Origin: an uncultured Acidobacteriota bacterium | GTDB lineage: Bacteria; Acidobacteriota; Vicinamibacteria; Fen-336 | Assembly (NCBI GenBank): GCA_963720545.1 | Contig: OY970399.1 | Location: 384,001 to 448,000 of the forward strand | DNA length: 64,000 bases | Direction of reading: 5' to 3' | Shown here: positions 24,001 through 30,000 of the stretch, one piece after another | How the letters are laid out: every line of letters starts with the position of its first letter | Position numbering within the stretch: the first letter of the stretch is position 1 | Program-made: the position numbers

Positions 24001-27000
24001 AGGCAGCAGCTGTTGGACCTCCATCAGGGACCCCACCAACATGATGTGGAAGATTGCCGAATAGAGGAAGATTTGACGCTGTAGGTTGTGTTTCACGCGA
24101 CCGCCACATTCGACGGATCAGGCTAGCACGCCGTATGCGCGGGAAGGGCGTGAAAAGGTCCCTCCATGAAAACCTTAACCTTCTGTGAAGATTGGACTTA
24201 GCCAGACCGACAGAGTTTTACTGAGCGCCGCCCGCGGCGTGCCGCGTGATCGAGGCCACGATCCGCTCGCAGAGGTCCAGTGCCCGCCGCCCCGCCAGGC
24301 CCGCAACGAGAGGCTCGCTCCTCGTCCGAACCGAGTGGAGGAACGCCTGCAGCTGGCGCGTGAGCGGCTCCTCCTCCGGCGCCACCACCGTCGAGGCATC
24401 GATGCGGGGATTCTGCGGATCGGCCGAATCGATGAGCACCACCTGCGCTTCGCGCTTCACGAGGTCGGCCGAGACGTAGGTTCCAGGGGCGAAGACCCGG
24501 AACTTGCGGGTCTTGTCGAGTGAAACCCGGCTCGCTGTGAGGTTCGCGATGAGGCCGGAGCGGAAGCGCAGGCGGGCGCTGGCGATGTCGATCTTCGGGG
24601 TCAGCACGGCCACCCCGACCGCATCCACCTGCACCGCCTCCGAACCGTCGAGCGCCAGCACGATATCGAGGTCGTGGACCATGAGGTCGAGGATGACGTC
24701 GATGTCGAGGCTGCGGCCCGGAAAAGCGCCGAGGCGGTGCGCCTCGATGAAGCGCGGGCTTCCGGCATGCTGCTTCAGTACGTCCACCACCGGATTGAAA
24801 CGTTCGACGTGACCCACCTGCAGGATGCGCGAGCCGGAAGCGGCAAGCGCGATGAGCTCGTCCGCCTCGGCCAGGGTCGACGTCATCGGCTTCTCGACCA
24901 GGACGTCCACTCCGGCGCGCAGCGCGGCGGCGGCCGCCTCGTGATGGCCGTTCGTCGGCACCGCAATGCTGACGGCATCCACCTCGGAAAGCATGTGCGC
25001 GAGGCTCGCGAACACGCGGGTCCCATGCCGCTCTGCGATCTCGGCCGCGCGGCCTGGGTCGGCGTCGCAGATGCCAGCGAGCGAGCAGCCCGCAAGCGTG
25101 GCGTAGACGCGTGCATGATGCTGGCCAAGCGAGCCGACGCCGACGACGCCGACGCGCACCGCTCTCTCAACCATGCGCTTCGTCCGCTATGCCCCAGATC
25201 GAGATGCCGCGGGTGTTCGCCGCCACCAGGAACTCGGGCTTGTCGATGATGAGCGTCTTGCCCGCTTCGATGCCGAGCACCGCGGCCTGCGCCTGGGCCA
25301 GCACCTCGAGCGTCGCCATGCCCACGACCGGCACGTCGAAGCGCGGGTCCTGCCGCGGCTTCGCCAGCTTGACGACGACGCAGCCGGCGCCGGCCAGCGA
25401 CCCGGCGCGGCGCACGACCTCGTCGGTGCCCTCCATCGCCTCGACCGCCACCGCCGCCCGGTCCTTGACCACCACCGTCTGCCCCACGTCCACCGCGGTC
25501 AGCGCGCGTGCCAGCCCCAGCCCGTAGGCGAGGTCCTTCTGCTGGGCCGCGCTCGGCGCCGGGCCCGCCATGGCGCCCGGCGCGGCCATGAAGTCGGCAA
25601 GCAGCGACACCGACGACACCAGGCGGATGCCTTCCTTCGCCAGCGCGTCGGCGACACCGCCGATCAGGCTGTCGGTGTTCTGGAACGCGAGCCGCGCCAG
25701 CACCGCCATCAGCTTCAGGTCGGGCTTGATGTCGGAAAAGATCTTGCGGTGCTTCACCTGCCCGGCCATCACCGCTTCGCTGACGCCGGCGGCGTGGAAG
25801 GTGTCGATGCACTTGCCCAGCTGGCCGAGGCTCATCCAGTGGGCTTCGTCCGCCTCCGCCTCGATTTGCTCGGACGCCTCCTCGCGGATCGCGACCGCCA
25901 CCACGCGGCGCCCGCGCCGGCGCGCCTCGCGCGCGATCAGCAGCGGAAAGCGCCCGTTCCCGGCGATCAGGCCGAGCGGCGCGCTCACGAAGGCGGCGCT
26001 TCCTGCGGCTGCTTCGCGCGCTTGCGCCGGCTGAGGATGACGCCGCGCTGCGACGCCTTCACGAATGCGAGCACGCGCAGCACCTCTTCGCCGTGGCCGT
26101 CTTCGGCCTCGAGGGCGGCGACCGCCGCCGAGAGGTGCGTGGCCTGCGCCGACAACAGGCGGAAGGCGCGGCGGATGGCCTTGATCGCCGCGGGACTGAA
26201 GCCGCGCCGCGACAGGCCGACGCTGTTGGGTCCGTAGAAATAGGCGCGGTTGCCGACCGTCTTCGAGTACGGCAGCACGTCGCGAGTGGCGATGGTCGCG
26301 CCGCCCATGAAGGCGTGGGTGCCGATGCGGCAGAACTGGTGCACCGCCGAGAACGCCGATACCGTCGCCCAGTCCTCCACCAGCACGTGCCCGCCGAGCG
26401 TCGCGTTGTTGCCGAGGATGGTGTTGTCGCCCACCTGGCAGTCGTGCGCGATGTGCGCGTAGTTCATGATGTGGTTGCCGCTGCCGATGCGCGTCACCGA
26501 GCCGCCCTGCGCGGTGCCGCGGTTGACGGTGACGAACTCGCGGAAGGTGTTGCGGTCGCCGATCTCGAGGCGGGTGGGCTCGCCCGCGTACTTCAGGTCC
26601 TGCGCCGGCTGGCCGATCGAGGCGTACGGAAAGACACGGTTGCCGGCGCCCATCTTCGTGGGACCGGCGATCACCGCATGGGATTCGACGATGGTGCCGG
26701 GGCCGAGCTCGACGTCCTTGCCGATGACCGCGTAGGGCCCGATGCGCACGCCGTGCCCGAGCACGGCGCCGGGCGCCACCTGCGCGGTCTCGTGGACGTC
26801 GGGCGGCCGCAGGTGCTGCACCTGCAGCAGCAGGCGTGCCTCGGCGACGCGCGCGTCGCCGGCGCGGATCTCGCCGCGCATGCGGCACAGGCTGCCGCGG
26901 CGGTGGATCAGCGACACCTCGAGACGCAGGCGATCGCCGGGCACCACGGGTCGGCGGAACTTGGCGTCGTCGATGCCCACCACGTGCACCTCGAGCGCGT

Positions 27001-30000
27001 GCGCGTCGTCCGCCTGCTCGAGCAGCCAGATGCCGGCGGCCTGCGCCAGGCTCTCGAGCAGCAGCACGCCGGGCATCACCGGCGCACCGGGAAAGTGCCC
27101 CTCGAAGAACTCCTCCGCGGCGGTCACCGTCTTCGATGCCACGAGCCGCGCCTTCGGGTCGTACTCCAGGATCCGGTCGACCAGGATGAACGGGTACTGG
27201 CTGGGGATGCGGCGGATCAGCGTGCCGATGTCGATCGGCAGCTTCGCCGGCGCGTCGGGCGCGGGCGCTGCGGGTACCTGGAGGCTCATGAAGAAGCGGC
27301 CGCCCCGGTTCTTGCGTCGAGCCGGGGCGGGACCCGCGCCTACTGCTTCGGCGTCGGGGTTGGCGTTGGCTTGGGCGCCGCCGGGCCGGCCGGCTTGGGC
27401 GCCGCGGCCGGCGCGCCGGCTGCCGGGGAAGCGGCGGCCGGTGCGGGTGCCGCCGCGGCGGCAGGAGCCGCCGGCGCCATCGCGTCGGCCTTCGCCACCA
27501 CCTCGGCGGAGATGTCGTAGGTCTTGTTGAACATCAGCGCCACCTGGTTGTCGATGATGATGTCGATGCCCTTGTCCTTGGCCACCGCGTCGATCACCGG
27601 CTTCAGCTTGCCCTGGAAGTCGGCCTGCAGCGTTGCCGCCTGGCCCTGCGCGCGCTCGCGCAGCCGCTGCAGCTCGCCCTGGCTGTCCTCGATGAAGGCC
27701 TGGCGGTCGCGGTTCTTCTTGACGATCTCCTGGCGCTTGCGCTCCTGCGCCTCGGGGCTCAGGGCCGTGCTCTGTTTGTCGAGCTCGTCCTGCAGGGTCT
27801 TGATCGAAGTGTCGATGCCTTCGAGCTCCTTCTGCTTGCCTTCGCCGCGGGCGTCGATGTCCTTGCGCAGCGCCTCGATCTGCGCCGCGTACGACTTGCC
27901 AAGCTTGCTTTCGGAGGAAACCCGGCCCATGTCGATGACGGCGATGCGCGGCGGCTTCGGGTCGGCCGCGGCGGCCGCGGTCTGCGCCTGCGCGTAAGGC
28001 GCCGATAACAGGGCCACTGCCGCAGCGGTGGTGAGCGACGAACGGAGCGACATTCTCATTTCCTCTCCTTAGAAGGTGGTGCCGATCGCGAACTTGAACA
28101 CGGATTTCTTGGTCCCGCTCGGGTTGGTCACGGGATCGTACGCCAGGAACGAGGGCACGTTGGGATTGCGCGCGTAGATCAGCCGGAACGGCACGTTCAG
28201 CACCGGCATGATGAAGCGCAGCTCCGCGCCGTAGGATACCTGCAGCTGGCGCAGGTTGATGTTGAAGCTGTCGTCGAACACCTGGCCGGCATCGCCGAAC
28301 AGCAGCAGGCGCAGCGGGCCGGCCACGTCGAAATAGTACTCGGCGTTGAACAGCAGCACCTTGTTGCCGCCCTCGGGGATGATCTCGTTCTTGTCGTTGC
28401 GCGACACCGGCCCGATGGTGCGGATGTCGTAGCCGCGCACCTGGTACTCGCCGCCGAGCCGCTGCAGGAAGCGCAGGTACGAGGTGAGCGTCGTCTGCCC
28501 TTCCGGCGAACGGTCGATGAGGTACGAGCCCTGCGCGCGCAGCCCGAGCGCCGTGCGCTTCCAGTGCGGGATGTAGACGATGCTCTCGAGCGTCGGCTGC
28601 ATGTAGTCGAGCGTGCCGCCGAGCGGGCCGCCGGCGTAGGTGAAGGTGGCGGTGTGCTTCATGCCGCTGCGCGGCTGGTACGGGTTGTCGGTTGAGTTGT
28701 AGACGAAGGACGGCGAGAAGCGGCTCTCGCGGCGCTTGCCGGTGAAGATGCTCGGGTCGAACAGCAGGCCGCCGGTGCTCTGGCCGGTGCCCGTGCCCGC
28801 CGGCAGCGTCGCCTCGATGACCTGGTACGAATAGGTCGGGAAGATGCGTGACCAGCGGCCCACCGGGAAGCCGTTGGTCAGCGTGACCCCCTTGCGATCC
28901 TCGCTGTAGCCGCCGTAGATCGTGTAGTCGGTGTTGCTCGCGAACAGGTCGATGCCGGCGGTGATCGGCCGATCGAACAGGTACGGCTCGGTGATCGCGA
29001 ACTGGTACGCCTTGGTACGGCCGCCGCGCTGCGCCGACAGCTGGAAGGTCTCGCCCGCGCCGAGGAAGTTGGAGGTGGAGAACGAGCTGTTGATGAAGGT
29101 GCCCTCGAGCCCGGAGACGCCGCCGCCGAACGTGAACTGGTTGCGGTTCTGCTCCTGCACCTTCATCTTGATGTCGAGCTTGTCCTCGCCGACGTCGCTC
29201 GGCAGCAGTTCGGGAGCGCCTTCCATCGGCTTGAAGTAGCCGAGCTGGTTGATGCGCCGGATCGAGAGCTTGAGCAGCTCGGTGTTGAAGACGTCGCCTT
29301 CGTTGAGGTACACCTCGCGGCGGATCACCTTGTCGCGGGTGGTGTCGTTGCCGCTGAAGCTGATGCGGCCGACGTAGTAGCGCTTGTCCTCGTCCATGTT
29401 GAGCGTGACGTTGACGATCTTCTTGGCGTCGTCGCGGTCGCGGTCGGTGCGCCCCTGCATCTGGAAGTAGCCCTGCGCGCCGTAGAACTCGCGGATTTTC
29501 TCGTAGCCCTTCTCGATGCGCGACTCGTTGTAGACGTCGCCCGGCTGCAGCTTGAACAGGCCGCGGATGCCTTCCTCCTTGAACACCGTGAGGCCGGCGA
29601 TCTTGACCGCGCCGACGCGGTACTGCTCGCCTTCGCTGACCGGAATCTCGAGCTTCACATCCTTCTTCGGCTTCTTGCCTTCGCGGCCGCCGTAGTAGCT
29701 GATGACCGGGCGGCCGATGGTGGCAGCGACGTAGCCGCGGTTCAGGAAGTAGTTCTGCAGGCGGCCGTAGTCGCCTTCCTGGCCGGTCCACTTGTCTTCG
29801 GTGAAGGTGTTCTTGCCGCCGAGCCAGCTGAAGTTCCAGAAGCGCCGCTCGCGGATCTTCTTCATCGAGCCGCGCAGGTCGGAGTCGGAGAACACCTTGT
29901 TGCCGACGAAGTCGATCTGCTTGACCACCGCCTTGGCGCCGTCCTCGATGACGAACGACACCTGCCGTCCGGCGCCGCCCGAGAGCACGCTCGCCTGCGT

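Follow-up and report, generated by a model that had tools for sequence, protein, structure and literature searches.

Background

Textbooks present FabZ, a drug target, as a homohexamer. In the double-hotdog DHs of modular PKSs and animal FAS, the N-half carries the His and the C-half the acid; in mycobacterial HadAB, unlike the pair described here, HadB holds both catalytic residues. These PKS and FAS-I enzymes have two hotdogs per chain and one site per pseudo-dimer (PMC2698920). In Helicobacter pylori FabZ, His58′ and Glu72 are contributed by different monomers, and the Glu monomer also supplies Tyr100, Lys129, Lys152, Met102, Thr103, Ile132 and the tunnel residues (PMC5143422). According to the available text of PMC8041823, ApeI:ApeP (PDB 6QSR; PF22818/PF22817) consists of two FabZ-like hotdog subunits with one active site; ApeI of A. 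baumannii is also fused to another enzyme. The LpxC/FabZ bifunctional protein (NF009667) joins FabZ to an enzyme of the lipid A pathway where that pathway branches off at 3-hydroxyacyl-ACP, and the available part of PMC3087551 names the lpxC fusion only.

No report of a FabZ-LpxA fusion in Acidobacteria was found in the literature searched (most subscription papers lay outside it), and a mostly open-access search found none of a His-less FabZ paralog in a heterodimer, or of YcsD with FabZ. On heterodimeric FabZ-type dehydratases it yielded the ApeIP and HadD papers only, and the available parts of PMC10698177 and PMC7949117 contained nothing relevant. A split dehydratase is known from pigment and polyketide enzymes; none was found described for core fatty-acid synthesis.

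Results

The fabZ-lpxA fusion gene and its operon

A 64,000-nucleotide stretch (the window) from an uncultured bacterium of the class Vicinamibacteria was analysed (Table 1). On the minus strand the gene order was bamA-like, skp, fabZ/lpxA, lpxI and Gfo/Idh/MocA. Residues 21–155 of the fusion matched the FabZ profile NF000582 (146 bits, cut-off 113), and residues 165–417 the LpxA profile TIGR01852 (307 bits, cut-off 231). The FabZ domain (subunit A) read IPSQYPF where LPHRYPF was expected, retained GHFP (His65) and Glu79, and featured a PGV helix cap. Translation and profiles agreed with the genome-wide survey's note, which had described a FabZ-LpxA fusion in a bamA-skp-lpxI operon with the GHFP His and without the PHR His. 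Against NF009667 the fusion scored 150 bits (cut-off 465), through its FabZ part only; it carries LpxA where the bifunctional protein has LpxC.

Table 1 Features of the fusion operon and the partner gene (positions in the window unless a contig is named)
Feature	Position	Strand	Basis or remark
fabZ-lpxA fusion gene (P0001)	25985..27289	-	ORF translation, 434 aa
FabZ domain, His-half subunit A	26816..27241	-	profile match and motif alignment
Codons of GHFP His65 and of Glu79 in A	27095-27097; 27053-27055	-	
Codon of Ser30 in A	27200-27202	-	PSQ replaces PHR
LpxA domain of fusion	26030..26806	-	profile match; AHIAHD catalytic motif intact
lpxI	25167..25988	-	PF17930 and PF06230 above cut-off; overlaps fusion stop
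skp/ompH	27340..28059	-	PF03938
bamA-like outer-membrane assembly protein, 803 aa	28069..30480	-	ORF; name by sequence appearance and earlier reader
His-less Glu-half FabZ, subunit B (P0002), 152 aa	C1:2302627-2303085, outside the window	+	

In the LpxA part, the catalytic His282 and Asp283, together with Lys233 and Gln318 (roles as in E. coli LpxA), were present in 77/77 fusions. The linker between the two domains was very short and nearly constant, with 15–17 residues between two anchor residues in 74/77. An AF2 model of the fusion had a pLDDT of 92.6 and a pTM of 0.82. The second LpxA noted before was found at C1:3900853-3901602. No intact canonical FabZ or FabA was found in this genome; a third, distant hotdog (C1:2159045-2159521) retained one His and one Glu.

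The His-less partner gene

The stand-alone gene with PHRYPF and Glu but no catalytic His that had been reported elsewhere on the contig could be read directly from the sequence of B: PHRYPF (His22) and Glu71 were retained, and FIGGPGG replaced FxGHFPG. B scored 154.8 bits against NF000582 (cut-off 113). Both proteins, 35–45% identical to ordinary FabZ, missed the TIGR01750 cut-off of 155.15 bits (A 143.2, B 145.6). The genes of A and B lie 1.9 Mb apart. B is divergently oriented to a GAF-GAF-SpoIIE gene, an arrangement common among B genes, and no lipid gene was recognised near B or the V members of the His-less clade among the 22 largest neighbour clusters listed.

The helix-cap Gly is needed for thioester binding; of 78 aligned B sequences, 40 have Pro in its place, 37 Ala and 1 Phe. 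The tunnel Gly of FabZ is Ala in B. B was not a broken gene, since its mean distance of 0.51 showed it to be better conserved than A, at 0.72, and the stops flagged in V matches were natural gene ends. A role as a FabA-like isomerase subunit would be unnecessary, as the genome has two desaturase matches.

Distribution of the two halves

The survey covered 119 genomes and our own, with a fusion-bearing set of 81 genomes in 15 families. In these families a fusion-type FabZ was found in 78/81, B in 77/81 and both in 74/81; four genomes (one of them 99% complete) had a fusion without a detected partner, and three a partner without a fusion. His65, Glu79 and Gln83 were each present in 78/78 A sequences. 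The PHR loop of A kept its His in 11/78 (0/39 in the organism's own order), PHR in 3/78 and the full PHR.PF in 0/78. GH(F/Y) occurred in 0/78 B sequences, the PHR His in 76/78 and the Glu in 78/78; a stray His lay within the former GHFP loop in 17/78. Among canonical FabZ sequences the PHR His was replaced by Gln in 7/115.

The partner had been thought absent from unfused genomes (0 of 5). All 16 unfused genomes examined (families f8 and f12) carried, in addition to a fully intact FabZ, a same-clade, diverged (37–44%) His-less PHR/Glu paralog, and family f49 likewise combined a His-less gene with a fully intact copy. In family f4 (5 genomes examined) the only copies were a His-half from which the PHR segment is gone and a Glu-half lacking the His; the former, very diverged, still had the Glu in 5/5, and no LpxA above cut-off was found in 5/5. 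The unfused and the lpxA-less genomes together ruled out a partner confined to fused genomes. The His-less clade spanned both (SH-aLRT 99, quick tree, class unrooted), and its V and f4 members had neighbours other than GAF-SpoIIE. A mirror-tree correlation of A with B (r = 0.87; 0.71 after partialling out LpxA) was given no weight because the pairs are not independent.

Side-specific conservation

For the Glu side of the site, 15 mapped columns were compared in 71 paired genomes by column permutation, motifs excluded. B was more conserved than A at 14/15 columns, with an entropy difference of 0.75 against a background of 0.45, which was marginal (p = 0.046). The tunnel and the ACP-docking face, which belong to the Glu subunit in H. 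pylori FabZ, were conserved in B, and the His loop and Arg112 were invariant in A alone. The gatekeeper, tunnel and PHR positions of A drifted freely; at the equivalent of Tyr100 the commonest residue reached 18%. This Glu side of A was eroded in the fusion lineage and intact in unfused f8/f12. Hexamer-type motifs were present in A as well as B.

Models and profiles of the pair

A 3+3 model of A and B scored 0.88, against 0.00 for the best of three controls (A6 not among them), a score that may reflect the model's memory of solved FabZ hexamers. The mark used for this score was attained by 116/157 solved complexes and 2/215 mismatched pairs, counts that apply only roughly here. Runs shared at least 86% of contacts, with a partner pLDDT of at least 85. 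A and B met through their beta3 strands, with Pro73/Val75 of A facing Glu71 of B, and A–B rather than A–A dimers were formed though both were possible.

As shown by profile comparison, the two halves sorted onto the ApeI:ApeP chains in the same way: the His-half profile matched 6QSR_A at E 7.7e-7 and 6QSR_B only at 0.064, and the His-less profile matched 6QSR_B at E 3.3e-4 and left chain A unmatched. The ApeI/ApeP families themselves were not reached (A against PF22818, 19.9 bits, cut-off 28.5; no PF22817 match of B at E 0.1). ApeI:ApeP belongs to secondary metabolism, is far more diverged and has its genes together in an aryl-polyene cluster, unlike A in its bamA-skp-lpxI operon and B beside a GAF-SpoIIE gene.

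Tandem proteins and His-less FabZ in other bacteria

In Lentisphaeria-type genomes both FabZ halves were found in one tandem protein (50/51 of one class, as a match in a 307–397 aa frame), which was the sole PF07977 match in 37 of these genomes. In 35 aligned representatives GHF of the N-half and PHR and Glu of the C-half were invariant, and the N-half Glu was substituted in 14/35. The Glu-side test gave p < 2e-5. The AF2 model (pTM 0.92) resembled PKS DH domains over full length (TM about 0.6); these tandem proteins alone share the two-hotdog chain of the PKS and FAS-I enzymes, A and B being separate genes. No lipid A genes adjoined the tandem at three loci read. A shared ancestry of its C-half with B was unsupported: a quick tree, in which deep branches had weak support, placed the two apart. 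Furthermore, a correlation of site-wise asymmetry between A/B and the tandem was gone without motif columns (rho 0.10, p = 0.31).

Genomes of the B. subtilis group carried, besides an intact FabZ, a paralog with PHRYPF and Glu and without the GHFP His, which fell outside the B clade in a quick tree. By gene order, the paralog examined is presumably ycsD. The YcsD-FabZ pair (PDB integrative model 9A6K) is listed in the source data of PMC11383924, where in-cell crosslinks served to model 135 pairs; YcsD resembles B, but its FabZ partner is intact. Independent FabZ-LpxA fusions occurred in Armatimonadota with an intact FabZ, and no His-less partner was found in the genomes bearing them.

Discussion

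Most Vicinamibacteria probably use a heterodimer with one working site as their FAS-II 3-hydroxyacyl-ACP dehydratase. Complementary half-sites are well supported as a reading by the motif split, the side-specific conservation, the tandem fusion in another phylum, the 3+3 model and the precedents of ApeI:ApeP and YcsD-FabZ. Counting against it are the distance between the two genes, the PHR His kept in some fused domains, the marginal Glu-side test and the lack of a site-wise correlation with the tandem. As in H. pylori, the site would sit between two subunits, the His and the helix cap coming from one and the Glu from the other, together with the gatekeeper Tyr, the acyl tunnel and the greater part of the surface on which ACP docks. 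A would contribute His65 and the PGV cap; Glu71, His22 and Tyr93 would come from B, as would the tunnel and docking face. With no His in B, and with Pro or Ala where the cap Gly belongs, the mirror site would be dead. Three modelled A–B dimers would assemble the usual hexamer, with a predicted three fixed sites instead of the six alternating ones of canonical FabZ (E. coli 6N3P; H. pylori 2GLL/4ZJB), which shares the fold, the inter-subunit His′/Glu dyad and the place in the lpxA operon but has the full motif set in each chain. The genes would thereby fix the three-ACP-per-hexamer "seesaw" of H. pylori. For this modelled pair we infer activity, obligacy and any substrate hand-over.

The note had called the heterodimer obligate. 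The pairing of half-sites is well supported, but "obligate" goes further than the evidence because A kept Glu79 and Gln83 throughout and because Gln also replaces the PHR His in some operon-encoded FabZ from other phyla; since the Glu persists in f4 as well, A–A sites may work. It is nevertheless rather unlikely that A is an active homodimer into which an optional B swaps, altering chain-length or ACP selectivity or damping activity. Such an optional role is required wherever the operon FabZ is intact (f8/f12, f49, the B. subtilis group), as the His-less gene is not needed there to complete a site; the Ala in the B tunnel, at a position occupied in anammox FabZ by an Ile that limits chain length (PMC10139942), and the nearly complete fusion genome without a detected B also point this way. 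Against it stand the free drift of the gatekeeper, tunnel and PHR positions of A, the loss of the whole PHR segment from A in f4, the missing N-half Glu of many tandem proteins and the model's preference for A–B dimers. That B does not pair with A at all, acting for instance as a thioesterase with the Glu as its sole catalytic residue, or sensing acyl-ACP in connection with the GAF-SpoIIE phosphatase, is very improbable: some hotdog thioesterases do use single-acid catalysis (PMC2698920), and B, which shows no linkage to lipid genes, is often divergent from a GAF-SpoIIE gene, but its cap replacements should spoil thioester binding in a B–B site, the V and f4 members have different neighbours, and the losses of B exactly complement those of A, as in the tandem proteins.

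In the one-site heterodimer, B would predate the fusion, and the fusion would add a rigidly joined LpxA, so that an (AB)3 hexamer would display one LpxA trimer. This geometry is a plausible consequence of the fusion. The note had pointed to such a hexamer; in a causal version of its reading, the matching of a FabZ hexamer to one LpxA trimer would be why the split evolved. The near-fixed linker, the pTM of the fusion model and the erosion of the Glu side of A in the fusion lineage alone would suit such a cause, which is unsupported since the His-less subunit occurs without fusion (16/16) and without lpxA (5/5 of f4, the most extreme split), all inside one clade, and since Armatimonadota fuse an intact FabZ; the tandem loci also lack lipid A neighbours. 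We regard this cause as quite unlikely, and LpxA matching as the origin of B as largely refuted.

A wider scheme is conceivable, and we offer it tentatively. The half-of-sites behaviour of FabZ would have been frozen repeatedly into His and Glu subunits, optional in Bacillus and Marinacidobacterales-type genomes, obligate with two genes in most Vicinamibacteria and tandem in Lentisphaeria-type genomes, and these living forms would bridge the FAS-II homodimer and the double-hotdog DH of PKS and FAS-I step by step; in the fusion lineage, a single LpxA trimer would sit on the three-fold axis of an (AB)3, and lipid A and chain elongation would share 3-hydroxyacyl-ACP with their sites in a fixed 1:1 ratio.

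If the one-site heterodimer is real, core fatty-acid synthesis would depend on it in a large class of Acidobacteria and on a tandem pseudo-dimer in another class. The A/B pair would permit each side of the active site to be mutated separately, making the H. pylori seesaw and the roles of Glu, gatekeeper and tunnel testable, and the rigid FabZ-LpxA join would make it possible to test how lipid A and phospholipid share the 3-hydroxyacyl-ACP pool. A possible job is also suggested for His-less paralogs such as that of B. subtilis. Both halves are currently annotated plainly as FabZ; an atlas search returned FabZ-named clusters only, the three best of which are commonest in Acidobacteriota.

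The FabZ-LpxA fusion and its partner

The FabZ domain of the fusion (A) contained the GHFP His65 and Glu79, and PSQYPF in place of PHRYPF. A fusion with the GHFP His and without the PHR His, accompanied by a His-less partner (B), had been proposed in the genome-wide survey's note and was borne out by the motifs read here. No intact FabZ or FabA was found in this genome (one contig, 94.8% complete). The catalytic motif of the LpxA domain was intact in 77 of 77 fusions, linker length was close to constant, and in a structure model of the fusion (pTM 0.82) the last FabZ strand passed almost straight into the beta-helix. 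Second LpxA copies of relatives, ~36–46% identical to the fused LpxA domain, were common in families f1 and f8/f12; the threshold applied revealed none in f3. The cluster of the third hotdog gene contained GNAT-like, deacetylase-like and flippase-like genes.

Positions of the genes and proteins discussed (C1, contig of this genome; L and P, locus and protein handles)
Feature	Position or handle	Strand	Remarks
FabZ-LpxA fusion ORF, 434 aa	window 27289–25985	(-)	between skp and lpxI
Partner B	C1:2302627–2303085		outside the window; PHRYPF and Glu71 kept, GHFP absent
Third, weak and distant FabA/Z-like hotdog gene	C1:2159045–2159521		His and Glu kept; in an unrelated cluster
Second, stand-alone LpxA	L469:1483–2400 = C1:3900853–3901602		
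Gfo/Idh/MocA oxidoreductase, TonB-like, SpoIID/LytB-like	window 21123–25174		3' of lpxI; latter two named by appearance
ClpC-like ATPase, LolD/LolC-like genes	window 30477–36457		upstream; named by appearance
His-less FabZ paralog, B. subtilis group	L480:1183–1572; L485		
FabZ-LpxA fusions with intact FabZ	L045, L046, L050, L052–L055; P0138, P0147; P0127		Armatimonadota-type and other sources
Further His-less FabZ-like proteins	L524, L525, L505, L511, L516		this row and the next: other Acidobacteriota families and further sources
Further His-less FabZ-like proteins	P0011, P0020, P0035–P0038, P0042, P0043		
Tandem His-half/Glu-half double FabZ	P0015, P0016, P0025, P0050; L358:4001–4957; L359:160–1095; L443–L467		

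A probable one-site heterodimer as the working dehydratase

According to PMC5143422, one monomer of H. pylori FabZ supplies His58', Lys62', Arg110' and Pro112' to the site; Glu72 and Tyr100, along with the tunnel and most of the contacts with ACP, come from the other, and the hexamer binds three ACP only. With these residues placed in A and B by motif spacing rather than by alignment to the H. pylori sequence, 14 of 15 non-motif columns of the Glu side were more conserved in B than in A (p=0.046 when compared with the remaining columns); judged by these columns, the Glu side is conserved in B. A conserved Arg112 together with the helix cap and the His loop, and both proteins retained the YP/KNV/E motifs, whose loops make hexamer contacts (PMC2698920). 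Operon FabZ at L044, L049, L057, L068, L071, L080 and L081, mostly Gammaproteobacteria-labelled, contained PQRYPF, in which Gln naturally replaces the His of the PHR loop.

A model of three A and three B scored 0.88 (best control, 0.00); of 157 solved complexes 116 attain the score mark, as do 2 of 215 mismatched pairs, figures that hold only roughly for a 3+3 job. Runs agreed in at least 86% of contacts, partner pLDDT was at least 85, and the interface did not differ among the three copies. In the pairs with the best scores, A joined one B via the beta3 strands, with A Pro73/Val75 against B Glu71, and a second B via the KNV loops. Because FabZ hexamers are already solved, the score may reflect likeness to them.

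We consider it probable that the working dehydratase is a one-site A-B heterodimer, in which A would supply the His side and B the Glu side. That A is an active homodimer, with B an optional tunnel or regulatory subunit, seems unlikely; it is favoured by Glu79 and Gln83, kept in A without exception, which speaks against a clean split. The survey's note had also tied the split to LpxA through a 3+3 hexamer that would carry one LpxA trimer. As a cause of the split this was not upheld, since His-less copies also occurred in f8/f12, where fabZ and lpxA are unfused, and in f4, where five genomes searched had no LpxA over the cut-off; the stoichiometric link is possibly a consequence, not a cause.

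Comparison with known systems

Genomes of the B. subtilis group carried a His-less PHRYPF/Glu paralog, probably YcsD, plus an intact FabZ elsewhere; the motifs of the paralog are as in B, but the partner FabZ is intact. A fold search returned the integrative YCSD-FABZ model, a pair present in the source data of PMC11383924, whose 135 pairs derive from in-cell crosslinks. ApeI/ApeP are described as single-site heterodimeric dehydratases in the available part of PMC8041823 and just as two dehydratases in that of PMC8253772. The His-half profile sorted onto 6QSR chain A and the His-less profile onto chain B, with A and B matches below family cut-offs. Armatimonadota contained independent FabZ-LpxA fusions with an intact FabZ and a longer linker, and a second FabZ, its His kept as well, in 4/5. 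P0127 was FabZ-FabZ-LpxA, both FabZ domains carrying His. The accessible text of PMC3087551 mentions lpxC/fabZ fusions alone.

The design is already known in aryl-polyene and polyketide enzymes. No description of the A-B pair was found in the literature searched (most subscription papers lie outside its coverage). In the same literature, class-wide use of the design in housekeeping FAS II, accompanied by intermediate states and a tandem counterpart, seems to be undescribed.

Distribution in Acidobacteriota

The class survey comprised 119 genomes and this one (G112 left out), and genes were read after the search. Of the 81 genomes of 15 families, 78 had fusion-type A (with a frameshift in one and a truncated copy in two), 77 had B and 74 had both. 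Four genomes had A only and three B only, profile searches included; these look like assembly loss, and one of the four without B is 99% complete.

Families f8 and f12 (16 genomes) had an unfused, fully intact fabZ adjoining lpxA, and all 16 also carried a His-less paralog that retains PHR and Glu, at odds with the survey note's count of no partner in unfused genomes; the f8/f12 paralogs have lost KNV. Named records that carry genes of this type bear the label Ca. Marinacidobacterales. Neither query matched in f4 (23 genomes) at the thresholds used. In the five f4 genomes read, a short His-half that had lost the PHR segment still stood behind bamA-skp, and a His-less Glu-half was also present. 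No LpxA over the cut-off was found in five f4 genomes searched, four of them among those read, possibly reflecting lipid A loss in a diderm lineage. The f4 loci L268–L272 retained bamA-skp-fabZ; lpxA and lpxI were missing from them.

In a quick tree (131 rows, up to three per family for A and for B) all His-less copies formed one group (SH-aLRT 99); the operon copies that bear the His fell into the same three blocks. Because the His-less copies, those of f8/f12 and f4 included, group together, this phylogeny argues that B dates back at least to the origin of the class and is independent of the fusion.

Of 100 published Acidobacteriota genomes that do not belong to the class, 85 yielded a single match only (two unpublished genomes left out of the count). 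The 21 best-scoring loci read there comprised 18 intact and three His-less FabZ, the latter all in family f49, where an intact operon FabZ was also present in two of the three genomes and broken in the third.

Tandem double-FabZ proteins

A profile of the His-less copies was searched against 1.84 billion representatives, and many of the best 150 matches were double-FabZ proteins of 303–329 aa. Alignment of 35 with split motifs revealed an N-half with invariant GHF and no PHR His, its Glu replaced in 14, and a C-half in which PHR and Glu were invariant and GHFP was missing. The alignment excluded P0014 and P0021, whose two halves both carry His, P0090 (a fragment), and P0084 and P0121 (permuted). 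Source names of two tandem proteins were Verrucomicrobiota and Lentisphaeraceae. Of 51 genomes in the class to which a Victivallales-labelled genome belongs, 50 matched in a 307–397-aa frame, 46 with two matches, and in 37 the tandem match was the sole PF07977 match. All 25 loci read had a single GHF motif, and in 23 of them PHR came after it; for the other two the script picked an additional PHR lying upstream in the untrimmed frame, and the second PHR was not placed. The tandem is apparently the main FabZ of these Lentisphaeria-type genomes, which shows that a His-half/Glu-half design can serve a lineage in this way; for A and B it is an analogy, not proof.

The AF2 model of a tandem protein was a single rigid unit (pTM 0.92), and its top fold match was 2CF2 chain C (TM 0.79), apparently a fitted FabA dimer to judge from its length and sequence; next came single FabZ chains together with DH and PT domains of PKSs. 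In P0084 and P0121 one FabZ-like domain was nested within another, in the order PHR start, full His-half, then Glu helix and strands.
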